A program made the translations under genes and the position numbers. A stretch of DNA of 64,000 bases. Source: a virus. The notes under the pieces were generated by a model, which made no database searches, had not been told where the DNA came from, and worked only from the letters and a program-made list of their open reading frames with translations. This document shows, piece after piece, positions 1 to 14,847 of this stretch. Every line of letters begins with the position of its first letter. The first letter of the stretch is position 1. The stretch lies in the IMG/VR virus record IMGVR_UViG_3300022925_000006. The stretch is one strand, 5' to 3'.

Positions 1-987
1 GAGAGTAAGTTCTTCACAGAAAAAGATATGGTGCCAACCACTGTTCCTATGGTGAACGTTGCGTTAGCAGGAAGTATTGACGGTGGTGTCACGCCAGGAC
101 TTACAGTTCTAGCGGGCCCGAGTAAGCACTTCAAAACATCTTTCGCACTGCTTATGGCAGGTGCGTATCTAGATGCAAAGAAGGACGCAGTAATGCTCTT
201 TTACGATAGTGAGTTTGGTAGTCCCCAATCTTACTTTGAGCAATTCGGGATTGATACCTCACGGGTGTTACATACACCCATCGCCAATGTCGAGGAACTC
301 AAGTTTGACTTAATTGGACAACTTGAGAACATTGACCGAAACGATGACGTAATTATTGTTATCGATTCAATTGGCAATCTCGCATCCAAGAAAGAACTAG
401 AAGATGCGATTAACGAGAAGTCGGTGGCAGATATGTCCCGTGCTAAAGCGCTTAAAGGTTTGTTCAGAATGAGTACACCGTACCTAACTATGAAGAACAT
501 TCCGATGCTTGCCGTCAACCACACTTATAAAGAAATTGGTCTATTCCCGAAGGATATCGTTGGTGGAGGCACAGGGATTTATTACAGTGCAGACAACATC
601 TGGATTCTTGGTCGTAGACAGAATAAGACGGGAACTGAGGTTACAGGATATGATTTCGTCATTAATGTTGAAAAGTCAAGATATGTTAAGGAGAAGTCTA
701 AGATTCCTATTAGTGTTTCTTGGGAGGGTGGCGTTGAGCGTAACTCTGGTTTGTTGGACGCTGCTCTTGCTGGTGGTTATGTCAGTAAGCCTAGTAATGG
801 GTGGTATTGTAGAGTTGACCGCTCGACTGGAGAATTGGTTGACCCCAAAGTAAGGGAGAAGGATACTCTCAAAGATGAGTTCTGGGCACCTATTTGGTCT
901 GGTACAGACTTTGCAGACTTCCTACAGTCCCAATATTCAATTACCAAAAAATCATTAGTATCAATGGATGATATTGTAGATGAATGA
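1..987 (+). CDS. uvsX: UvsX RecA-like recombinase (5' end lies before the window)
   Basis: Walker A GPSKHFKT, FYDSEFG, IVIDSIGNL, GGGTGIYYSAD. Frame is open from base 1 (ESKFFTEKDM...), so the true start is upstream. Confidence 0.95.
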   Translation, partial: ESKFFTEKDMVPTTVPMVNVALAGSIDGGVTPGLTVLAGPSKHFKTSFALLMAGAYLDAKKDAVMLFYDSEFGSPQSYFEQFGIDTSRVLHTPIANVEELKFDLIGQLENIDRNDDVIIVIDSIGNLASKKELEDAINEKSVADMSRAKALKGLFRMSTPYLTMKNIPMLAVNHTYKEIGLFPKDIVGGGTGIYYSADNIWILGRRQNKTGTEVTGYDFVINVEKSRYVKEKSKIPISVSWEGGVERNSGLLDAALAGGYVSKPSNGWYCRVDRSTGELVDPKVREKDTLKDEFWAPIWSGTDFADFLQSQYSITKKSLVSMDDIVDE

Positions 988-1393
988 GATTGAGTCAAAG
1001 TTAAGTGAGAAGATTCACTATGAGATTATTCCAGCCGATGATGAACACGGTTGGAATATTCGAATACTAGAAGAGTATCCTGAAACGGTTATCTCTTTTG
1101 GTACTATTGAATTTCTTGGAGAAGAAGACCAAGACGGTCATCTCTCTTTCAACTTCAGTGTAGTTGAATCACCTGACCCAGATTTATCACCAGAAGACTT
1201 GCCTTTTCAAGCATATGTTGGTAGAATACTAGGTTCAGTAATTGATACTTCTATCAATGAAGGAACGATGGTTGCCCATGACCAGAAAACGGGTGAAATA
1301 TTAGCAACCGAAGAAATGACTGAGGAGTTAGACGAACTATATAATGAATATCAATCTAGAACAGACAGTACTGCGGAACTTATTGACCAATGA
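980..1393 (+). CDS. Hypothetical acidic protein at the T4 gp40 position (between uvsX and gp41)
   Basis: Synteny with uvsX-40-41; overlaps both neighbours. Confidence 0.55.
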   Translation: MNEIESKLSEKIHYEIIPADDEHGWNIRILEEYPETVISFGTIEFLGEEDQDGHLSFNFSVVESPDPDLSPEDLPFQAYVGRILGSVIDTSINEGTMVAHDQKTGEILATEEMTEELDELYNEYQSRTDSTAELIDQ

Positions 1394-2756
1394 TGAATAT
1401 ATGCGGAAGGTTCTTCCGTTTATTTCACCTGACTACTTCGATGGAGTCTACAAAGGACTCTTTAAAGAAGTCACAAAGTTCGTAGCCAAATACAACAAAC
1501 TACCTAGTCTTGAATCATTCAAGATTGAGATAGACGAAAACAATTCGATGGGTGATGATAACTATCGCATTGCGTTAGACCTACTACCCAACATCTTTAC
1601 CGCAGAACCAGAAAACCTCGAATGGTTGATTGAACGCACTGAGAAGTGGTGTCAAGACCGTGCAGTTTATAATGCTGTCATGGAGTCAATCAACATCATC
1701 GATGGCAAACATGCGACACTTCAAAAGAATGGAATACCTGAGATATTGAGTAAGGCCTTGGGCGTTACCTTTGATACCAATATTGGTCACGATTATCTTG
1801 CTGATGTCGATAGACGTTATGAATTCTATCATGAACAGGAAGAACGTATTCCGTTTGACCTTGACTACTTCAATCAGATTACCAAGGGTGGTCTACCAAA
1901 CAAAACACTAAACATCGCACTTGCGGGTACTGGTGTTGGTAAGTCATTGTTTATGTGTCACATGGCTGCATCTGGTTTATCACAGGGTCACAATGTACTC
2001 TATATTACCATGGAGATGGCAGAGGAACGTATCGCAGAACGGATTGACGCAAACCTATTGAACGTGCCTATTGACCAATTGGAGAATTTATCTAAGACTA
2101 TGTTCACCGACAAGGTGCAACAGATTCAAGCGAAGACTCAAGGTAAACTTATTATCAAGGAGTATCCGACTGGTCAAGCAAACACGTCACACTTCCGTGC
2201 GTTGTTGAATGAGATGAAGTTGAAGAAGAACTTTGTTCCTGAGATTATCTTTGTTGATTATCTGAACATCTGTTCCTCTGCACGTATGAAAGGTATGGGT
2301 GGTGCTATCAACTCTTATTCTTATATCAAGTCTATTGCAGAAGAGTTACGTGGACTCGCAGTTGAGTTCAATGTTCCTATCATGTCTGCAACCCAGACTA
2401 CACGTAGCGGTTATTCTAATGACGATGTTGGTCTAGAAGATACGTCCGAATCATTTGGACTACCCGCAACTGCTGACCTAATGTTCGCACTCATCTCAAA
2501 TGATGAACTGAACAATCTTGGTAAGATAATGGTCAAACAGTTGAAGAACAGGTATAACGACCCGACTCGACATAACAGGTTTACTATAAAGATTGACCGC
2601 AGTAAGATGCGTCTCTCCGATGATGATGATGAGGAAATGATTCCTAGTCATGACCCCGACAAAGGATGGGATGATAAACCTATATTTGATAACAGTTCTT
2701 CTGGTAAGAGGATGTCTCAAGAAAACAACAAGTTTAAAAACTTTAGGATGGAATAA
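1344..2756 (+). CDS. 41: gp41-type DnaB-like replicative helicase
   Basis: AGTGVGKS Walker A, YITMEMAEE, IFVDYLNI, SATQTTR, SESFGLPATAD, KQLKNRY. Confidence 0.95.
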   Translation: MNINLEQTVLRNLLTNDEYMRKVLPFISPDYFDGVYKGLFKEVTKFVAKYNKLPSLESFKIEIDENNSMGDDNYRIALDLLPNIFTAEPENLEWLIERTEKWCQDRAVYNAVMESINIIDGKHATLQKNGIPEILSKALGVTFDTNIGHDYLADVDRRYEFYHEQEERIPFDLDYFNQITKGGLPNKTLNIALAGTGVGKSLFMCHMAASGLSQGHNVLYITMEMAEERIAERIDANLLNVPIDQLENLSKTMFTDKVQQIQAKTQGKLIIKEYPTGQANTSHFRALLNEMKLKKNFVPEIIFVDYLNICSSARMKGMGGAINSYSYIKSIAEELRGLAVEFNVPIMSATQTTRSGYSNDDVGLEDTSESFGLPATADLMFALISNDELNNLGKIMVKQLKNRYNDPTRHNRFTIKIDRSKMRLSDDDDEEMIPSHDPDKGWDDKPIFDNSSSGKRMSQENNKFKNFRME

Positions 2757-2998
2757 TGGATTATGTATGGCCAATATCAACCGTGGTACTTATGTTCATA
2801 TCCTACTGGGTCGGTAAGATTCATGGGTTTGTGCATGGCGAGGACGAGGGTTTCAATGAAGGTATTAAACAAGGAACTCCTGTAGTTGCAACCGCAATAC
2901 TACGATGGGTGCGTCAAGAAAAGGATATAAATATCAGTGACCCTGAAATTAAAGAAATAATCGATAACATAAATGTTGAATGGAAAAATGATAAATGA
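2756..2998 (+). CDS. Small membrane protein
   Basis: N-terminal hydrophobic segment; TAATG/ATGA coupling to both neighbours. Confidence 0.6.
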   Translation: MDYVWPISTVVLMFISYWVGKIHGFVHGEDEGFNEGIKQGTPVVATAILRWVRQEKDINISDPEIKEIIDNINVEWKNDK

Positions 2999-3651
2999 GT
3001 GAAGTAAATCTAATTGCATTAAGTAAACCGTCCGCAGTGACAGATTGCCGAACCGCAACTGAGTTGGTGGCATATACTGCTAGGGTGAGTAATCCCAGTA
3101 ATCAGAATAATACAAAGACGGCTCCTAAGTTGTTGAAGTATCTGATTAAAGAGAACCATTGGTCTCCCTTTGAGATGGTGCATATGACTATGGAGATTAA
3201 GACTACTCGTGATATTGCACGACAGATTCTACGTCATCGCTCGTTCTCATTCCAAGAGTTCTCTCAACGGTACGCTGTGAGTGAGAACATTGATGTTGTT
3301 CGTGAAGCACGTCTACAGGATGAGAAGAACCGACAGAACTCTATTGTAACGGATGACACACATATCAAACATGAGTGGCGTCATACTCAAGCGAGGGTAC
3401 GTAACTTCGTGAAGAAAGAGTATGCTGCCGCACTTGATATGGGTATCGCAAAAGAACAGGCACGTGCATTGTTACCCGAAGGTTTGACCGAAACTACTCT
3501 TTATATGGCTGGTAGTCTACGTAGTTGGATTCACTACTGCGACCTTAGACGTGCGAATGGCACTCAGAAGGAACACATGATTGTTGCAGAACAGTGTTGG
3601 GACGTTGTGAAGGGACACTTTCCAGAAATTGCAGATATGACCAATGACTGA
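2995..3651 (+). CDS. thyX: Flavin-dependent thymidylate synthase
   Basis: HWSPFE and RHRSFSFQEFSQRY ThyX signature; KEQARALLP. Confidence 0.95.
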   Translation: MSEVNLIALSKPSAVTDCRTATELVAYTARVSNPSNQNNTKTAPKLLKYLIKENHWSPFEMVHMTMEIKTTRDIARQILRHRSFSFQEFSQRYAVSENIDVVREARLQDEKNRQNSIVTDDTHIKHEWRHTQARVRNFVKKEYAAALDMGIAKEQARALLPEGLTETTLYMAGSLRSWIHYCDLRRANGTQKEHMIVAEQCWDVVKGHFPEIADMTND

Positions 3652-5965: not shown

Positions 5966-5994
5966 TTGGTAATATTAACTCTAACTAAGGAAAT

Positions 5995-6285
5995 ATGAGA
6001 AAGAGTAACTTTGATAGGAGACCACAACGTCCTAAACCAAAAGTGTGGCCTAAAGACGGTGCTAGGCAAGTCACCGTAAGATATGATGATGTCGAGACCG
6101 CCTTGAAAGTATTCAAGAGAAAGGTTAAGAAATCAGACATTCTCTTTGATATCAAGAAGAAGGAGTTCTTTGAGACAAGAAGAGAGAAAGGAAGAAAAGC
6201 TAAACTCGCTGCTATCAGGAGGGTTAAAAAGCAAAAAATGAAACAAGCAGAACTTGATGAAAGAATGAAGTTCCGTTACAGATAA
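5995..6285 (+). CDS. rpsU: Ribosomal protein bS21 homolog
   Basis: VTVRYDDVETALKVFKRKVKKSDILFDIKKKEFFE..REK.RK.KLAAIRR matches the S21 pattern; short N-terminal extension. Confidence 0.85.
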   Translation: MRKSNFDRRPQRPKPKVWPKDGARQVTVRYDDVETALKVFKRKVKKSDILFDIKKKEFFETRREKGRKAKLAAIRRVKKQKMKQAELDERMKFRYR

Positions 6286-6296
6286 ATCAAAACTCT

Positions 6297-6304
6297 TATA
6301 AATA
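6297..6304 (+). promoter_or_regulatory. T4-type late promoter
   Basis: Exact TATAAATA in the intergenic gap. Confidence 0.75.
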
Positions 6305-6350
6305 TAGAAGTCAGGTAGACTTAACAAAGTAACAAGGGTGTGGATGTGTC

Positions 6351-6536
6351 ATGAAAAAGACAAAAAGAATAAAATCCCGTCACGGGAATCTGTTGTTTGA
6401 CAACAATAGTCCTTTTAAACAAAAGGTAGTACTCGATAAAACGAAGTACAACCGCAAAAAGAATCCCCGCAAAGTCGGGGATTTTTCTTATTGGTCTTTA
6501 TTAAATTCTCTAAAGGGTCTAACCTTTCCATCATAG
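6351..6536 (+). CDS. ArfA-like basic peptide (putative alternative ribosome-rescue factor)
   Basis: LLFDNNSPFKQKVVLDKTKYNRKK resembles the ArfA core (LL.DPLFRQRV......SY.RK). An intrinsic terminator lies inside the ORF before the stop codon. Confidence 0.6.
   Translation: MKKTKRIKSRHGNLLFDNNSPFKQKVVLDKTKYNRKKNPRKVGDFSYWSLLNSLKGLTFPS
6456..6489. terminator. Bidirectional rho-independent terminator inside the ArfA-like ORF
   Basis: AATCCCCG-caaagt-CGGGGATT stem; T-tract TTTTTCTT on + and TTCTTTTT on -. Confidence 0.85.
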
Positions 6537-6799
6537 AATAACATTTTATACCAAGGAGTGTCCCTCTTCATGCGTGGAAGGGTGTACTCAAACTTCTTAC
6601 CTTCCCTGTTAATCCAAACAACATGATATCCAATCCATCTTCTTGATGGATACCACTGTGCCTTCCCACCATTCACAATAATATTTTCTAGTGTCCAGAA
6701 ATAACAGTTGTTCTTCTTAGTGAACAAACGTATTGGCCATGACCAGAAAAACACAATCATTAATGTGAATGTTATTAATTTTCTGTATAAAGTATCCAT
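6488..6799 (-). CDS. Hypothetical membrane-anchored protein
   Basis: N-terminal hydrophobic helix; ends at the bidirectional terminator; CATATATA-N5-ATG upstream on the - strand. Confidence 0.6.
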   Translation of the reverse strand: MDTLYRKLITFTLMIVFFWSWPIRLFTKKNNCYFWTLENIIVNGGKAQWYPSRRWIGYHVVWINREGKKFEYTLPRMKRDTPWYKMLFYDGKVRPFREFNKDQ

Positions 6800-6826
6800 A
6801 TAATTATATATATGGAAGTCGTTTCT

Positions 6827-6834
6827 TATAAATA
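6827..6834 (+). promoter_or_regulatory. T4-type late promoter of the csg-FecR-cyclase operon
   Basis: TATAAATA-cctac-ATG. Confidence 0.8.
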
Positions 6835-6839
6835 CCTAC

Positions 6840-7121
6840 ATGGAAAATGCATTTACTCTAATCAATGAATTGGGGTTTCCTATAGCCGCTGCACTGATTG
6901 GCGGTTTCTTTATGTTTCTGACTCTCAAGTATATAATGGACGGTGTTATTGGTCAGGTGAAATCTATTCGTGGAATAGTGGGAAGCCTTGATAACCGTGT
7001 AAAAACTATGAATCATGATATGGTTCGTATGGACACAACTATGTGTGTTGTTCTGGGAATAAGACCAGACCTAACCCGCATCAGTAGAGCTAATGGTAAA
7101 GAAGATGCGAGACGAGACTAA
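6840..7121 (+). CDS. Small membrane protein (GFPI motif, TM plus coiled coil); paralog of the next gene
   Basis: INELGFPIAAAL TM segment; LDNRVKTMNHDMVR. Confidence 0.7.
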   Translation: MENAFTLINELGFPIAAALIGGFFMFLTLKYIMDGVIGQVKSIRGIVGSLDNRVKTMNHDMVRMDTTMCVVLGIRPDLTRISRANGKEDARRD

Positions 7122-7372
7122 TGATAGAATTTATAGACAGTATAAAGTCTTTCGGGTTTCCGATAGTATCAGCGGTGGGTATGCTGTATATGATTTACTT
7201 CGTGTGGAAAACAATCACCGAAGAAGTCGAGAAGAACTTAGATGATACACAAAAGACCTTAATTGGTTTGATTGACAGAATAAGAATGTTAGATAATGAT
7301 ATCATCCGATTGCAACAGAAACTAGATACTGCAATCGAATTAAAGAGAAAACAAGATGAAGAAAATAACTAA
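7121..7372 (+). CDS. Small membrane protein (GFPI motif, TM plus coiled coil)
   Basis: IKSFGFPIVSAV TM segment; LIDRIRMLDNDIIR. Confidence 0.7.
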   Translation: MIEFIDSIKSFGFPIVSAVGMLYMIYFVWKTITEEVEKNLDDTQKTLIGLIDRIRMLDNDIIRLQQKLDTAIELKRKQDEENN

Positions 7373-7844
7373 GTTTACCGTGATTGAAAAAATAGAATCG
7401 ATTATATTATTGGTTTGTTTTGGACTTATGTTTTTTGTGTTTGCCGAAGTTTCGGCTGCACCGATTGAACATAAGTTTAAATCGCCGTCATTCAGTGGAG
7501 TGAACACTAGTTCTCATTATTTAACAATTGAGAACCAAGAAGCATCTCGTAAACAAGCCATAAAACAAGAGATAAAGGAATTACAGGAACAATTGGAAAG
7601 GGATGCTGAGAATACCACCCTTGCAAAATTTATTAGAAATGTGGAAAGTAGAATTTATTCTACCCTATCACGACAGATTGTAGACAGTATGTTCGGCGAG
7701 AATCCTAGTGATACGGGTTCATTTAACATTGAAGGTACAGGAATATCATACGTCAGAAATGGCGATAGTGTGGAGTTAACAATTACAGATGAGAATGGTA
7801 ATACGACTGTTATCGTTATTCCTCTTGGGGACTTTGGTATCTAG
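7356..7844 (+). CDS. csgF: Curli assembly component CsgF-like
   Basis: Signal peptide then HKFKSPSFSG...YLTIENQE (CsgF F..PnFgG-type motif); F..N.ESRIYS.LSRQI; directly upstream of csgG. Confidence 0.8.
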   Translation: MKKITKFTVIEKIESIILLVCFGLMFFVFAEVSAAPIEHKFKSPSFSGVNTSSHYLTIENQEASRKQAIKQEIKELQEQLERDAENTTLAKFIRNVESRIYSTLSRQIVDSMFGENPSDTGSFNIEGTGISYVRNGDSVELTITDENGNTTVIVIPLGDFGI

Positions 7845-8604
7845 TTGTACTTCTCTCGGTAGTGGAAACTTTGAGATACCACAGAGAGATGAACCAAGAA
7901 TACAGGAAACATTACTCCAACAAGAACTGAAGAATGTTTCTAGTCCGAAGAGGAAACCGACAGTAGCTGTGTATCAGTTTACTGACCAGACGGGACAGAA
8001 AAGACAAAATAGTGGTGGTGGAACTTCGTTTAGTTCTGCGGTAACACAAGCACCTTCGGTGTACCTAATACGTGCATTGAAACGTGCAGCGAACGGAAAT
8101 TTCTTTCGTGTTGTAGACCGTCAAATTATTGACCATGTCACTAGAGAAAGACAACTGATACGTCAAACTCGTCAAAGTTACGAGGGAGATGAATCTCAGA
8201 AATTACCAGCATTAACGTTCGCTGGGATGATAATTGCAGGAGGTATAGTAGGATACGATACTTCGATTGACACAGGTGGCGCTGGTGCTAGATACCTCGG
8301 TATTGGAGCGTCCCGTGAATTTAGTATTGATACTGTGACCGTAAATATACGGTTAGTGTCAGTTGCAACAGGCGAAGTCTTGCTTGATGTAATAACAAGT
8401 AAGACCATACTATCCACGGCTTTTGGTGGGGATGTATTTAAATTTATAGAGCAGGGCACCCAACTGGTTGAGATTGAATCAGGGGTGACTCAAAATGAAA
8501 GTGTTTCCATAGCGACCCAACGTGCTATAGAAACGGGAGTCCTTGCGCTCATTAATCGTGGAAACGACATGGGGTACTGGACATTTAACGGAGAAAATAA
8601 ATGA
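7789..8604 (+). CDS. csgG: Curli secretion channel lipoprotein CsgG
   Basis: Lipobox LVSSC; VAVYQFTDQTGQ, FSSAVTQ, ERQLIR, GGIVGYDT, GGAGARYLGIG, VSVATGEVL..V..SKTILS. Confidence 0.92.
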   Translation: MRMVIRLLSLFLLGTLVSSCTSLGSGNFEIPQRDEPRIQETLLQQELKNVSSPKRKPTVAVYQFTDQTGQKRQNSGGGTSFSSAVTQAPSVYLIRALKRAANGNFFRVVDRQIIDHVTRERQLIRQTRQSYEGDESQKLPALTFAGMIIAGGIVGYDTSIDTGGAGARYLGIGASREFSIDTVTVNIRLVSVATGEVLLDVITSKTILSTAFGGDVFKFIEQGTQLVEIESGVTQNESVSIATQRAIETGVLALINRGNDMGYWTFNGENK

Positions 8605-9323
8605 ACGTTAGGCATTTAAGTTTTGCTATGATGTTCGTAATCGGTTTTGCGTATGCAGACAATGAAATATATATTGACCAAGTAGGAGATGGGTCTTCGA
8701 TTGACATCGTACAGGATGGTTCGGGGAACGTGATTGGTGGTTCTGCTTCAGACACCACTAAGATGTTACTTTCGGGTAGCAACATGGATTTCAATGTCAA
8801 CATGACTGGTTCGGGTAATACACTGATAGGTGATATTATTGGTTCTGGAACTATCGTTGACCTTGATATCAATGGTTCGAGTAATGACCTGTTATTTGAT
8901 ATTGATAAAGGAAATGTGTATGGAGCTACCAATGGCGATTACTTCATTAATATCACTGGTGGTAATAACGCTTTAGACTTTGATATTGGTTCGATTGATA
9001 CTGCCAACGACTTAGACTTTGACTTTGTCTTGGATGGTGATTTTAACACTGGAGACATTAATATTGATGCGTCAGGTTTGACATTCAATATGGATGTTGT
9101 AGGTGATAACAGTAACTTACTTTACAATGCTAGTGGTTATGATGGACACAACTTTGTGTTGAGAGGCATTGGTAGCTATTGGAATATAGAAGTAAATCAA
9201 GAATCAACTTTACAGTCTGATTCGTTGGAGATAGATTATGATGGTGACGGAACAAGTGCGACAGCGAATACTATTTGTATTAGTCAGTCTGATTCTGGTC
9301 TTAACTCCAACTGCGGTAACTAG
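8601..9323 (+). CDS. Secreted curlin-like beta-solenoid repeat protein
   Basis: Signal peptide (AYA|D); NEIYIDQVGDGSSIDIVQDGSGN and repeated x-hydrophobic-x-G-x-x-N units; rich in G, N and D. Confidence 0.75.
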   Translation: MNVRHLSFAMMFVIGFAYADNEIYIDQVGDGSSIDIVQDGSGNVIGGSASDTTKMLLSGSNMDFNVNMTGSGNTLIGDIIGSGTIVDLDINGSSNDLLFDIDKGNVYGATNGDYFINITGGNNALDFDIGSIDTANDLDFDFVLDGDFNTGDINIDASGLTFNMDVVGDNSNLLYNASGYDGHNFVLRGIGSYWNIEVNQESTLQSDSLEIDYDGDGTSATANTICISQSDSGLNSNCGN

Positions 9324-10359
9324 TGCTGACGTAGGCGCAGTAGATAAAGCGGTTGGTTGGAGACAGATTGTTCGTGATTTGAACAAGATTGAACCAAGGG
9401 CTGGTTCGGATATAGCACCCAAGGACGACCTTCGCACAGGTGAGGGACGGATGCAAGTGTCTTTTGTTGACGATAGTAAACTTCGTATGACAGAACATAC
9501 TCGCATAGTTATAGACAACGTAGTATTTGATGAAGACCCAAGTAAGTCTGATTTGGCAATGACCTTTGCTCAAGGTACGGCTAGATTTATATCTGGTCAA
9601 CTGGGTAAGGTTGATAAAGAGAATATCAGACTCAAGACCCCGACCGCATCTATCGGTATCCGTGGAACAGATTTCACGGTTACGGTAGATGAGTTTGGGA
9701 AAACTTTGGTTGTACTTTTGCCTGACGTAAACGGTATCTCCTCGGGCGAGATTATCGTTTCAACAATGACAGGTGAAGTAGTACTCAACAAACCATTTCA
9801 ATCTACCACAACAACCGTTGCCGAAGTGGCCCCAAGTGAACCAGCAATCCTAGATTTGACTCTGGATATGTTGAACAACATTATGATTATCAACCCACCT
9901 AAAAAGAAAGAGACTCAAGAAGAGTTCATGGCAAATGTCAGTGCGACCAAGAATATCAACCCTCTTGACGTAGACTTTTTAGACCAAGACTTGTTAACCG
10001 AAGAAGAACTAGAGAGGGACTATCTAGAATTCAATGAACTAGATATCAACTACTTAGATGTTGACCTACTCGAAGACTTATTGGATAGTTTCGATTCATT
10101 GGGTGAAGATGTGTTGAAAGAACAAGAGTCTACAGGTGAATTATCTCTCAGTGGCACCGAAGAAGGATTTGATACGGTTACTCAGGTTGCAACCATTGTA
10201 GATGGTGACAAGGTTACTTTTTCTAGAAACGTCAGTGACATTGCAGAGGTTTCGGTAGATAAGACATCATCAACTTTAATAACAATAGAACAAGACGGAA
10301 AATCACTAGACCCCATTAAATTAAACGGCCAAGATACTCAGATAAATATAGTACAATGA
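9238..10359 (+). CDS. FecR-domain periplasmic protein
   Basis: Signal peptide; D.LRTGEG.MQVSFVDDSKLRM, G.ARFISG, TPTASIGIRGTDF FecR signature; acidic C-terminal linker. The start may be the GTG near 9256. Confidence 0.85.
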   Translation: MMVTEQVRQRILFVLVSLILVLTPTAVTSADVGAVDKAVGWRQIVRDLNKIEPRAGSDIAPKDDLRTGEGRMQVSFVDDSKLRMTEHTRIVIDNVVFDEDPSKSDLAMTFAQGTARFISGQLGKVDKENIRLKTPTASIGIRGTDFTVTVDEFGKTLVVLLPDVNGISSGEIIVSTMTGEVVLNKPFQSTTTTVAEVAPSEPAILDLTLDMLNNIMIINPPKKKETQEEFMANVSATKNINPLDVDFLDQDLLTEEELERDYLEFNELDINYLDVDLLEDLLDSFDSLGEDVLKEQESTGELSLSGTEEGFDTVTQVATIVDGDKVTFSRNVSDIAEVSVDKTSSTLITIEQDGKSLDPIKLNGQDTQINIVQ

Positions 10360-12176
10360 AGACATGGCACGTTCTTATCACACTGGGGTTGATGGTAGGA
10401 TTACGATTTCTTGACCCCTTCCTATTAGAGAGTGCTAGACTCTCTTTCTTTGATTCCCTTCAAAGAAACCAAGAAACATCTATCTCAGAACAGATTGTAC
10501 TGGTAGATATTGACGAAAAGACTTTAGATAAGTTTGGTCAATATCCAATTCCCCGTAAGGTCATGGCAGATGAGATTGATAAGATTGATGGTAGTATTAT
10601 TGCATTCAATATCTTGTTCTCAGAAGAAGACAGAATGGGAGGCGATGAATACTTTGCAGACATTCTATCTTGGAAACAATCGGTGGTTGCTATTGCACCA
10701 TCCAATAGAACCAACACAGACTACCGACCACCCCGTATCGGAACTGCAACCTTTGGTGACCGAGATGCCGAAGACTTCAGACCCGAACTGCCAGGCATGT
10801 TATTTGCACAACCAATCATACATGAGAATGTATTTGGTTACGGAACGATATCATCTACACAGGATGTTGATGGTATCACAAGAAGACAACCTCTATTGGA
10901 AAACTTTGATGGAAGACTCTATCCCGCATTTGGATTAGATGTTCTCAGGGTTGCCGCAGGAGACTCATCTTATCAGATATCCACGGATGAATACGGAATC
11001 AAGTTTGTTCGTGTACCACAGTTTAAAAATATCATAACTGATACTAGTGGTAATATCACTATCGCATACTGGAATGAATTTAAGAGATACTCGTTCACGG
11101 AACTAGACACTATACCAAAAGGCAGTATAATCGTGATTGGAGCGAACTTTGAGGGTTCTAGTATAGTTGCGACACCCGTGGGGTCAATGTATCCTCATGA
11201 CATTCAAGCGAACATAATCAAGACTATGATTGATGGTGTCGTTTTAAAGCGACAGGACGAATTTATTTTCTATGAGGTCTTGACAAGTATCATACTTTCT
11301 GTTATACTATTAGCTTTTATAACCTATGCACCAATAAGTGTATCTGGTATGACGTTTGGTGTCATACTAGGTGGATTATATTACTTTGCCAACGATACCT
11401 TCTCAACCTACTATTATATGGTTGACCCTGTATTCCCTATATTAACGTTAGTAATAATATTTGCACATGGTTCCTTTGTACAGTTCTACACACAGTTTAA
11501 AGCTAAACAGATGATTAAGGGTCAGTTCGGAACTTACCTATCACCCGACATGGTAGACATGTTGGCAAAAGACCCAAGTCTCATGAAGTTAGGTGGTGAG
11601 AAGAAAGAGATGACGTTTCTGTTCATGGACATATGTGGATTCACCCCCATATCAGAACATTACAAAAACAAGGACGATGCGGAAGGATTGGTCACACTTA
11701 TTAATAACTATCTTAATGAGATGACGAAAATTATCCTAAATAACGGTGGTACAATCGACAAGTATATGGGCGATTGTATTATGGCATTTTGGAATGCACC
11801 TTTACCCTGTAAAAATCACGCAGAGATGGCAGTTAGGTCTGCAATAGAAATTGAAGAGAAAACGAATGAACTCCGAAGACAATATAGTGAACAGGGTCTA
11901 CCCCCCATCAATGTTGGAACTGGTATCAATACAGGTACTTGCATTGTTGGTAATATGGGTAGTGAGTCACGGTTTGATTATTCAGTCATCGGAGACGCAG
12001 TCAACCTTGCAGCAAGACTCGAAGCAACCGCAGCTCGAGGAGACTACCTTGAATACAAGACCATCTACTCTAGTTTCACAATGGAAAAACTCACCACTAT
12101 TAATTCGAGACCAATAGGTCAGATTAAAGTGAAGGGTAAGGAGGAAATGATTGATATCTTTACAATGGACAGATAA
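10356..12176 (+). CDS. CHASE2-domain class III adenylate cyclase
   Basis: IVLVDIDEKTL...GQYP.PR and DVDGITRR (CHASE2); three TM helices; FMDICGFT, IDKYMGDCIM, GNMGS..RFDYSVIGDAVNLAARLE. Catalytic and ATP-specifying residues are intact. Confidence 0.93.
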   Translation: MKTWHVLITLGLMVGLRFLDPFLLESARLSFFDSLQRNQETSISEQIVLVDIDEKTLDKFGQYPIPRKVMADEIDKIDGSIIAFNILFSEEDRMGGDEYFADILSWKQSVVAIAPSNRTNTDYRPPRIGTATFGDRDAEDFRPELPGMLFAQPIIHENVFGYGTISSTQDVDGITRRQPLLENFDGRLYPAFGLDVLRVAAGDSSYQISTDEYGIKFVRVPQFKNIITDTSGNITIAYWNEFKRYSFTELDTIPKGSIIVIGANFEGSSIVATPVGSMYPHDIQANIIKTMIDGVVLKRQDEFIFYEVLTSIILSVILLAFITYAPISVSGMTFGVILGGLYYFANDTFSTYYYMVDPVFPILTLVIIFAHGSFVQFYTQFKAKQMIKGQFGTYLSPDMVDMLAKDPSLMKLGGEKKEMTFLFMDICGFTPISEHYKNKDDAEGLVTLINNYLNEMTKIILNNGGTIDKYMGDCIMAFWNAPLPCKNHAEMAVRSAIEIEEKTNELRRQYSEQGLPPINVGTGINTGTCIVGNMGSESRFDYSVIGDAVNLAARLEATAARGDYLEYKTIYSSFTMEKLTTINSRPIGQIKVKGKEEMIDIFTMDR

Positions 12177-12305
12177 CTTCCTTTCACCACAATCCCCACT
12201 TCGGTGGTATAGACCGTAAGGTTCTCACTTTCTTCTTTTATAAGAAAAAGTTCTAAAAACTCCCCTTTTTATTCCATATTAATCTACTTATTATCAAAAT
12301 AAGTG

Positions 12306-12362
12306 TTGACGAAACCTGCCTAATCGACTATAATGTATATGTAAAGTCGAGTTGAGAGAGAG
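12306..12362 (+). promoter_or_regulatory. Early promoter cassette, family B
   Basis: TTGACG-17-TATAAT then GTATATGTAAAGTCGAGTTGAGAGAGAG, identical downstream to the copy at 16538. Confidence 0.85.
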
Positions 12363-12366
12363 AATT

Positions 12367-12510
12367 ATGGGTTATGTATTGCGTTGTTTGAAAACTGATT
12401 TTATTATTGTCAACAAAGTGTTTGAGACTGTTCCAAAAGCATTGAAGTATCGAATGGAACACTTGGAACGTGGTGTTGCGTGGGTTGATTATTTGGAGGA
12501 GGTTGTATAA
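12367..12510 (+). CDS. Small early protein (47 aa, not in the ORF track)
   Basis: MGYVLRCLKTDF...LEEVV*; directly after the promoter and GAGAG SD; TAATG-coupled to the next gene. Confidence 0.6.
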   Translation: MGYVLRCLKTDFIIVNKVFETVPKALKYRMEHLERGVAWVDYLEEVV

Positions 12511-12782
12511 TGGCTCTTGCACCAATGAGTGTTGAACCCGTGTTAGGTGAGTTCGTAGAGAAGGAGTGTGGTAACTACTTTCACTACTCTGAGAATGATG
12601 ACCCATTCCATTGGTGTGAGGACTTTCCCCACAAGATATGGGTAGGTGACCAGATTGGTTCTCCCTATCGTTATGGTCTGGTCAAGAAGACCGTTGCTTA
12701 TGTCTGTGTTGATGAAGATGAATTTGGTCTCCCTGTTGTGGAGAAATGGTTTCTTAAAAAGAACGTGGAGTTTATTGTATGA
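12510..12782 (+). CDS. Hypothetical early protein
   Basis: GGAGG SD; coupled to its neighbours. Confidence 0.65.
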   Translation: MALAPMSVEPVLGEFVEKECGNYFHYSENDDPFHWCEDFPHKIWVGDQIGSPYRYGLVKKTVAYVCVDEDEFGLPVVEKWFLKKNVEFIV

Positions 12783-13018
12783 TTAACGAAAATGGTATAG
12801 AAGTAATCCCTACCCATATTGGAGGTGTGTGGAACATTACACATTCCTTTACACAATCCAAGACAGATGTCTCGGAATACTACTACAACCCTGAGTTGGA
12901 TAAGTTTGGTAACAAGGATGACTGGGTCTGCAAAGACGGTTGGGTACGCATCGTTGTTGACGCATCTCTGCCCGCCCAAGAAGTTGACAAAATCTTTTTT
13001 TACTTATTTTCAAAATAA
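12779..13018 (+). CDS. Hypothetical early protein
   Basis: ATGA overlap; GGAG SD. Confidence 0.55.
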   Translation: MINENGIEVIPTHIGGVWNITHSFTQSKTDVSEYYYNPELDKFGNKDDWVCKDGWVRIVVDASLPAQEVDKIFFYLFSK

Positions 13019-13021
13019 CGC

Positions 13022-13056
13022 TTGACAAACGTTGCTGTTGTTGTTATAATAAGTAC
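13022..13056 (+). promoter_or_regulatory. Early promoter cassette (A/B hybrid)
   Basis: TTGACA-17-TATAAT-AAGTAC followed by the family B leader TCGAGTTGAGAGAG. Confidence 0.85.
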
Positions 13057-13084
13057 TTAGTTAATCGAGTTGAGAGAGTAAATT

Positions 13085-13881: not shown

Positions 13882-14847
13882 ATGAGCATGAATGACGTTT
13901 TACAGATTGAAACAATGGCCTATGCGGGGTCTTCACCTTGGGGTGAGATTGGTACGCAAGTACCGAACGACCTATCCCCACAACAAATTATGACTAAGGC
14001 AGGACTTGACTGGTCTGTCGAGAAAGTCCCGACCTTTGCAATCATGGGTGATGAACAAATCCCCACGGGTCAGGAAGCACTTGTCAGGTCTTCGGACAAC
14101 AAGATTCTAACTCAGGTTGGTAAGAACTGGCATCCTGTCCAGAACGAAACTGCGTTTGAGTTCTTCAACGACTTCTGTTTGGAAGGTGGTATGGATATGC
14201 ATACTGCGGGTTCACTGAAGGGTGGTAAGATGGTCTGGGCACTCGCCAAGATTAACGAGTCATTCGATGTGTTGAAGGGTGACCAAGTAGATTCCTACCT
14301 GTTGTTCTCCAACCCACACGAGTATGGTAAGTCAATCGATGTTAGATTCACCCCAATCCGTGTTACTTGTATGAACACCCTTGCGATGGCAATCAAAGGT
14401 TCTGCGGTTAACGGAATGAAACTTAATCACCGTAAGGCATTTGACCCTCGTAAAGTAAAAGAGACTATGGGTATTGCACACGAGAAGTTTGAACAATACA
14501 AAGATGTTGCTCAGTTCCTTGCTGGTAAACAGTTCTCTATGGACGCACTGGTTCAATACTACAACGATGTGTTCCCTAGAACGTATCAGGGTAAAGAAGA
14601 AGTCGAAGTCAAGACGATTCAGGACTTGACCTCTAATGGTCAGAAAGCGTTTGAGTTCTTGGAGTCACAGCCTGGTGCTGAGTTCGGAAAGGGTTCATGG
14701 TGGCAAGCACTTAACAGTGTGACCTACTTGACTGACCACCAGATGGGTAGGGAAGCGGACTCAAGATTGACTTCCGCATGGTTCGGTGCTAACCAGACCA
14801 GAAAAATCAAAGCAGTGGAAAGGGCAGTCGCATTAGCGGCTGCTTAA
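13882..14847 (+). CDS. DUF932/DUF945 phage-plasmid protein
   Basis: PW...G, AGLDW.V, VQN..AF.FF, AGSL.GGK.VW, FTPIRV.C.NTL, W.A.N.VT...DH. Confidence 0.85.
   Translation: MSMNDVLQIETMAYAGSSPWGEIGTQVPNDLSPQQIMTKAGLDWSVEKVPTFAIMGDEQIPTGQEALVRSSDNKILTQVGKNWHPVQNETAFEFFNDFCLEGGMDMHTAGSLKGGKMVWALAKINESFDVLKGDQVDSYLLFSNPHEYGKSIDVRFTPIRVTCMNTLAMAIKGSAVNGMKLNHRKAFDPRKVKETMGIAHEKFEQYKDVAQFLAGKQFSMDALVQYYNDVFPRTYQGKEEVEVKTIQDLTSNGQKAFEFLESQPGAEFGKGSWWQALNSVTYLTDHQMGREADSRLTSAWFGANQTRKIKAVERAVALAAA

Follow-up and report, generated by a model that had tools for sequence, protein, structure and literature searches.

The DNA analysed here is the viral record IMGVR_UViG_3300022925_000006 of IMG/VR, a stretch of 64,000 nucleotides (hereafter the window), and its subject is a cassette of seven co-directional plus-strand genes at 6840-12176. 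The cassette encodes two small membrane proteins, CsgF, CsgG, a curlin-like protein, a FecR-domain protein and a CHASE2 adenylate cyclase. This block, FecR and cyclase included, has already been published and is not new; we tentatively read it as a curli-type export unit joined to an envelope sensor. The window belongs to an uncultured marine T4-like phage with a G+C content of about 40%, carrying a DnaB-type helicase and a ribonucleotide reductase that is 79% identical to that of Phage C48C1 and 66% identical to that of Melnitz. According to the open reading frame (ORF) list of the window, the seven genes are contiguous or share 1 to 86 nt with their neighbours (Table 1). Pfam families were assigned for CsgF, CsgG, FecR, CHASE2 and Guanylate_cyc, the curlin match remaining sub-threshold. 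A first-pass annotation of this DNA had described seven tightly overlapping genes behind one late promoter, with which the ORF coordinates and an exact TATAAATA agree; the gene identities that it proposed were borne out by Pfam and PHROG matches, the lipobox, export signals and a fold match.

Table 1. Features of the cassette and of its 3' border (positions in the window).
Feature	Coordinates	Strand	Evidence and remarks
Putative late promoter motif, T4-type, exact TATAAATA	6827..6834	+	Ends 5 nt before first ATG; activity inferred
Small bitopic membrane protein 1, 93 aa	6840..7121	+	phrog_18771, 1e-30; transmembrane segment 11-29
Small bitopic membrane protein 2, 83 aa, paralogue of protein 1	7121..7372	+	phrog_18771, 2e-25
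CsgF homologue, signal peptide	7356..7844	+	PF10614, 6.4e-18; phrog_35372, 3e-41
CsgG outer-membrane lipoprotein (secretion channel)	7789..8604	+	PF03783, 8e-48; lipobox
Secreted CsgA-like beta-solenoid (curlin-repeat), presumed channel substrate	8601..9323	+	Repeats; AlphaFold2 fold match
Exported FecR-fold protein	9238..10359	+	PF04773, 1e-11
Receptor-type CHASE2 class III adenylate cyclase, 606 aa	10356..12176	+	PF05226, 1e-36; PF00211, 9e-20
Sigma-70-like promoter TTGACG-17-TATAAT, opens next unit	12306..12334	+	11/12 consensus; consensus match only

The motif TATAAATA occurs in 11 copies in the window, against 4.1 expected. Of 67 related loci, 36 have it 12-33 nt 5' of the gene for the first small protein, mostly at -13, and one-mismatch forms were present in several of the remaining ones. 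This conserved placement supports putative T4-type late transcription of the cassette. Since the motif ends 5 nt before the start codon, the first gene would be nearly leaderless. Downstream of the cyclase stop codon, a 170-nt gap containing the sigma-70-like promoter forms the 3' boundary. Minus-strand ORFs within 6840-12176 were short and lay over coding frames, and no known RNA family was found above threshold by Rfam between 5500 and 13000.

The CsgF homologue matched all but the first two positions (3-132) of the 132-position profile PF10614, scoring higher than its 25.8-bit cut-off, and has a hydrophobic N-terminus (residues 16-34). Its N-terminal motif HKFKSPSFSG presumably resembles the part of Escherichia coli CsgF that inserts into CsgG. 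Residues 36-267 of CsgG, which make up nearly all of the mature protein, aligned with the solved E. coli structures of CsgG (1e-43), and a lipobox, LVSS-C, precedes them at residues 16-20. In the constriction loop the Phe is kept and the neighbouring residues are changed. No Pfam family for CsgE, CsgC or CsgD was detected in the seven proteins at E values up to 0.1; the first-pass remark that no csgE was evident thus stands for these proteins, and CsgE is likewise lacking in the published viral block (Wittmers 2022; PMC9599517).

The curlin-like protein, which carries an N-terminal hydrophobic export signal, matched Curlin_rpt below threshold (E = 0.015, 15.7 bits against a Pfam cut-off of 20.7). 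The same family matched 18 of its 26 orthologues (best 2.5e-9), and periodic Q-x-G-x-G-N and G-(D/S)-S-N turns were invariant over all 26. Its AlphaFold2 model, with a predicted local distance difference test (pLDDT) of 85.9, is an all-beta solenoid. Foldseek with this model returned nothing significant. In an exhaustive VIA search the top fold match was Pontibacter CsgA (8c50_A; Z 18.0, 215 residues aligned, 20% identity, root-mean-square deviation (rmsd) 9.0); the E. coli CsgA fibril (8enq) was matched at Z 11.1, also by VIA. The protein is therefore classed, by repeats and model, as a curlin-repeat subunit, an assignment that covers nucleator and major subunit alike.

The FecR protein starts with a hydrophobic helix, an export signal or anchor, followed by a beta domain (about residues 30-220), and PF04773 was found in 25 of 25 orthologues. 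Its AlphaFold2 model (pLDDT 69) comprises the beta domain, a disordered linker and a small C-terminal beta domain. Residues 60-217 superimposed on the cell-surface signalling domain of PupR (6ovk_R) with Z 15.2 and rmsd 2.6 over 135 aligned residues. The linker (213-299), disordered in the model, is acidic and rich in Leu and Asp; L243, D244, L248, L253, L278 and L282 were invariant in 25 sequences, with D269 and L268 conserved in at least 90%. For the C-terminal beta domain (300-373) no fold match above Z 3.1 was obtained. Two candidate identities for this domain were rejected. Curlin-like strands were not supported by hhalign against the curlin alignment (2% probability, E = 0.022; N-domain control, E = 0.21), and the match to the pore plug 5ix9 (RIN, MpIBP adhesin) fell on residues 29-125 (Z 6.6).

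The cyclase was aligned with the catalytic domain of Pseudomonas aeruginosa CyaB (3r5g; 9e-39), and all six catalytic residues were aligned within one chain: two metal-binding Asp, a Lys/Asp adenine pair and an Asn/Arg pair. The corresponding residues, D425, K469, D473, D541, N550 and R554, were invariant in nine viral orthologues, so that the intact metal-binding, adenine-specifying and catalytic residues claimed at first pass are confirmed; the Lys/Asp pair specifies ATP. PF05226 (CHASE2) matched residues 10-317 at 1.2e-36, and hydrophobic segments of transmembrane type lie at 6-24, 304-322 and 352-377. Together with Pfam and the orthologues, this gives an architecture of one transmembrane segment, a periplasmic CHASE2 domain, three transmembrane segments (of which two stretches were scored), a transducer helix and the catalytic domain. 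The transducer helix was read from a match to a phytochrome-cyclase fusion that starts at residue 387, between the last transmembrane segment and the catalytic domain. The cyclase domain also matched PADLOC PycC models (3e-25), with 87 bits against 137 for CyaB.

Both small proteins align as paralogues, each with a short N-terminus, a GFP(I/V) motif, one transmembrane helix and a helical tail. Protein 1 has the form GFPI and a conserved C-terminal RPDxDRI(A/S)RA...DARRD. The family phrog_18771, matched by both, is virus-only, and protein 2 additionally gave a weak match to the holin family phrog_4898 (E = 0.0016). No Pfam, NCBIfam or PADLOC family was found for either, a search of the ESM Atlas returned only unnamed virus-only clusters, and a profile search of the PDB gave only coiled-coil noise (a kinase-GCN4 chimera, E = 0.41). 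The published label "histidine kinase" for these proteins is unsupported: they are 83-93 aa long and contain no HisKA or HATPase domain. In three loci (L217, L218 and L219) both genes have moved downstream and lie on the opposite strand (13969-14591, minus), and in L064 and L081 one of them is placed between csgF and csgG. Their retention with the block when its order changes argues that they are part of it.

A csgFG operon was first seen in pelagimyophages (Zaragoza-Solas 2020; PMC7029224). The full set, given as "HK, CsgF, CsgG, CsgA/B, FecR, second CsgA/B, AC" (HK, histidine kinase; AC, adenylate cyclase), was subsequently described in podo- and myophages and detected at all 65 GOV2.0 stations (Wittmers 2022; PMC9599517). 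This pelagiphage region, known as the viral type VIII secretion system, likewise lies in T4-like marine myophage and shares with the window the two small membrane proteins, CsgF, CsgG, a CsgA/B-like protein, FecR and the cyclase, in the same order. Its carriers are marine phages of the pelagimyophage/Melnitz lineage or of HTVC023P type, and the best phage hits of the window are to Melnitz, HTVC008M and C48C1. It differs by a second curlin gene between FecR and cyclase, optional as published and absent in the window.

The DNA of the window matched only Pelagibacter phage HTVC008M, and its proteins additionally matched four Melnitz phages of OM43. The records of HTVC008M (gp011-019) and of Methylophilales phage Melnitz (gp97-104) show an equal order of genes, with the extra curlin-like gene between FecR and cyclase. 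With gp019 of HTVC008M the window cyclase shares 45% identity, and with its homologue in Melnitz 36%. Phage C48C1, the nearest deposited relative for other genes, gave no cyclase match by tblastn. Relatives of the cyclase were found on at least 596 viral contigs in IMG/VR, and 80 viral loci were kept for a check of gene order. All kept loci with enough upstream DNA hold the complete gene set, nearly always in one order, and the same seven genes were present on freshwater metagenome contigs. The linkage of FecR and cyclase to csgFG, which the first-pass annotation had set beforehand as one test of its idea, was thus seen in every related viral locus checked, and this test did not refute the idea. 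A short form, without the second curlin gene and with a 4-nt overlap of FecR and cyclase, is shared by the window, about 15 IMG/VR contigs and freshwater contigs.

In the cyclase tree, the module-linked enzymes form one clade (support of 100 in the Shimodaira-Hasegawa-like approximate likelihood ratio test, SH-aLRT), apart from the cellular CHASE2 cyclases. The window cyclase is nested in a marine viral clade and lies within a well-supported subclade (L003-L018, L025) that has no second curlin gene.

One variant departs from this pattern. On CERJ01011472.1 (L226; region 142-3321), a podophage-like contig with a T7-type primase/helicase, a curlin gene and FecR were found. FecR is followed by five small ORFs of 59-103 aa, extremely basic and rich in Lys and Arg; beyond them, 1.2 kb after FecR, lies an overlapping spanin pair of Rz/Rz1 type.

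For comparison with bacteria, the 80 best cyclase loci from species-representative genomes were taken as the cellular set. The block was found in one of the 80, a contig of a Caulobacteraceae metagenome-assembled genome (CANGEH010000001.1; L084), where a stretch at 5983-13075 holds csgF, csgG, two curlin genes, fecR and a CHASE2 cyclase gene without the two small membrane genes. It is flanked by glycosyltransferases, a peptidase and a TonB-dependent receptor, and its G+C content is about 0.52, against about 0.65 in the adjoining DNA. These flanks and the step in G+C indicate a real bacterial island that was probably acquired. Its cyclase is sister to a freshwater phage-like clade (support 99), a position compatible with transfer in either direction. 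Directly 3' of the cyclase gene, at 12482-13075, lies a gene for a 197-aa protein of PycTM type (PF18967, 9e-25; PADLOC PycTM, 1e-17). No other PycTM homologue was found in the fetched loci or the window, and among 401 genomes of the same order a full-length FecR of the viral type was found only in the genome that carries the island. Close relatives of the island FecR (P0057, P0062 and P0108; about 55% identity) are recorded on contigs of 324-337 kb, which may come from chromosomes of bacteria or from very large phages.

The remaining cellular CHASE2 cyclases are mostly alphaproteobacterial and have no curli genes. A FecR-domain gene was adjacent or within about 1.5 kb for about 13 of 77 of them, and Pfam confirmed FecR beside the CHASE2 cyclase in Thalassospira and Ensifer; the neighbours of the others are unrelated. 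In Burkholderia and P. aeruginosa, similarly, a LysM-FecR gene lies beside one for a histidine kinase with a CHASE2 domain (PMC5192318). The presence of FecR beside both cyclase- and kinase-type receptors argues that FecR serves CHASE2 as an input partner regardless of the output domain. From gene neighbourhoods, FecR and CHASE2 look like a recurrent pair with varied outputs, independent of curli, that the cassette has borrowed as a sensor. This cellular pairing is an addition to the published account, Wittmers 2022 not having noted it.

Beside four of the cellular CHASE2 cyclases, large proteins of 840-3260 aa were observed (L136:4679-9877, L092:13120-15642, L156:3647-8533 and L111:3-9782). 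Three carry FecR near the N-terminus, and two of these also have RTX repeats and appear adhesin-like. The protein at L136 gave a sub-threshold match to a BapA_N prefix; the largest, at L111 (3260 aa), has no Pfam family.

Set against known systems, the cassette shares with the E. coli curli genes (CsgBAC-CsgDEFG) the CsgG lipoprotein channel, CsgF and a curlin-repeat solenoid with a Sec signal. CsgE, CsgC, CsgD and a distinct CsgB were not found in it, whereas FecR, the CHASE2 cyclase, the two membrane proteins and the late phage promoter are additional. With the FecR/PupR anti-sigma factors it shares the fold of the periplasmic beta domain; the PupR domain has the periplasmic part of an outer-membrane transducer as its binding partner. 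Unlike those factors, the phage FecR has about nine residues before its hydrophobic helix and no cytoplasmic anti-sigma domain, and it has gained the acidic linker and C-terminal domain; no extracytoplasmic function (ECF) sigma factor or TonB-dependent transducer was found by Pfam among the seven cassette genes. The cellular FecR-CHASE2 pairs likewise set an exported FecR protein beside a CHASE2 receptor, with class III cyclase output in alphaproteobacteria, but their cyclases form a separate clade, they have no CsgG, CsgF or curlin, and some of the FecR partners are giant RTX/BapA-like proteins. Pycsar shares the class III-type cyclase domain. The phage cassette has no effector gene, and its cyclase differs in the ATP-specifying Lys/Asp pair and the periplasmic sensor domain; Pycsar cyclases are not known to have such a sensor domain.

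Several neighbouring features were recorded outside the cassette. Directly upstream and divergent from it, a 103-aa ORF with a hydrophobic N-terminus lies on the minus strand at 6488-6799. A small basic ORF at 5995-6285 resembles ribosomal protein bS21, and near it a 61-aa ORF (6351-6536) has a strong bidirectional terminator hairpin (6459-6486) inside its frame. The sigma-70-like promoter at 12306 precedes a series of small early-type ORFs, and after these, at 13882-14847, comes the gene for a 321-aa member of phrog_1221 (2.5e-63), a conserved phage family.

The reading that we favour, as possible rather than probable, is that the cassette is a composite of a minimal curli-type export unit and a FecR-CHASE2 sensor making cyclic AMP (cAMP), acting late in the envelope of the infected cell. 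Late expression from one T4-type promoter would install the envelope proteins. CsgG and CsgF would assemble into an outer-membrane channel, through which the CsgA-like solenoid would be exported to the surface. Periplasmic FecR, in contact with the inner-membrane CHASE2 cyclase, would act with it as a sensor pair, cAMP being made in response to the state of the periplasm or the surface, so that signals pass from outside to inside; what is sensed would most likely be whether the channel is occupied or what becomes of the curlin subunit. The two small bitopic proteins of the inner membrane would be obligate partners. This reading draws on a receptor-type cyclase with its catalytic residues intact, on a FecR fold like that of PupR, on the FecR-CHASE2 pairs of cellular genomes and on the strictness with which the genes are inherited together. 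A role as virion components was rejected, as five of the seven proteins have export signals, a lipobox or transmembrane segments. As to the use of the signal, superinfection sensing, lysis timing and control through CRP are pure conjecture.

Several observations weigh against this reading. About 64 of the 77 cellular CHASE2 cyclases have no FecR neighbour, and the cyclase is only "frequently" present in the published block (Wittmers 2022; PMC9599517). In L226 no cyclase was found in the 10 kb downstream of the curlin gene and FecR. The absence of the cyclase from cassettes that keep FecR means that FecR must also have a cyclase-independent role; perhaps it serves the export part, replacing CsgE. 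As the cyclase is dispensable in some phages, cAMP output is not the whole purpose of the cassette. The sensor idea of the first-pass annotation gains from the cellular pairs, and its interpretation as a whole is partly supported. Five related phage records, among them the complete Melnitz genome, yielded no canonical domain binding cyclic nucleoside monophosphates. In Melnitz infections no clumping of infected cells was seen (Buchholz 2022; PMC9004378). The direction of signalling is unreadable from sequence.

Other accounts place the emphasis elsewhere. According to the published proposals (Zaragoza-Solas 2020; Wittmers 2022), the cassette makes a curli-like amyloid coat for cell aggregation ("sibling capture") or for blocking superinfection, with FecR, cyclase and small proteins regulating or assisting secretion from the inside out. 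The minimal export set of CsgG, CsgF and CsgA-like protein is conserved over the loci, FecR remains with the export genes after loss of the cyclase, and many phages carry a second curlin-like gene. The conservation of the CsgA-like substrate throughout makes fibre export likely, and the first-pass formula "rather than a biofilm operon" is not supported. As the whole account, however, a fibre coat is somewhat unlikely: transcriptional control by cAMP is unneeded for genes that share a single late promoter, the FecR-CHASE2 pairing occurs in bacteria without curli genes, neither a separate nucleator (CsgB) nor CsgE was found, and the lack of clumping in Melnitz infections counts here as well. A role in lysis was proposed for the Melnitz block (Buchholz 2022; PMC9004378), the pore and small proteins acting in lysis or its delay and the cyclase as a timer, loosely like the holin/antiholin of T4. 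The motif-based late expression fits, and the holin match of small protein 2 and the spanin pair of L226 point weakly the same way. We consider lysis timing distinctly unlikely, because CsgG, an outer-membrane lipoprotein, cannot depolarise the inner membrane, and the conserved secreted substrate and CsgF would be left unexplained; the holin match is weak, and the spanin proximity is seen at a single locus, where five small genes separate the pair from FecR.

Very unlikely, in our estimate, is an extended form of the sensor reading, in which FecR docks to channel or curlin through its linker and C-terminal domain in place of CsgE and signals inward to the cyclase; the island in L084 would then use a Pycsar-type effector for envelope-triggered abortive infection, and in phages the small proteins would be the effectors, in lysis timing or superinfection exclusion. 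Less probable again is a conflict system, Pycsar-like or for superinfection exclusion, in which the cyclase generates an envelope-triggered signal against competing phages or host cyclic-nucleotide defences. It would account for the PycTM-type gene after the island cyclase and the match to PycC models. That gene is known from a single locus, with no homologue in the other loci or the window; the PycC match reflects shared class III ancestry, CyaB scoring far higher, and the Lys/Asp pair specifies ATP. Finally, CsgG may be an ungated pore that admits small nutrients or cofactors to the periplasm late in infection, an idea raised in PMC7029224 and PMC9599517 and in keeping with the missing CsgE. 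Co-inheritance of CsgF, a curlin-like substrate, FecR, the cyclase and two membrane proteins would have no explanation under such an uptake role, which we regard as the least probable.

Few accessory blocks are as widespread as this cassette in phages of the most abundant heterotrophs of the ocean, and it supplies infected cells with machinery that is reportedly missing from their hosts. The window contributes a clean annotation of it and a correction of the "histidine kinase" label. Leads for testing are the island with its PycTM gene, the podophage variant without a cyclase and the cellular FecR-CHASE2 pairs. If FecR and CHASE2 do sense the envelope, the cassette would be a second-messenger pathway built by a phage and would offer a first way into the question of what CHASE2 domains sense.

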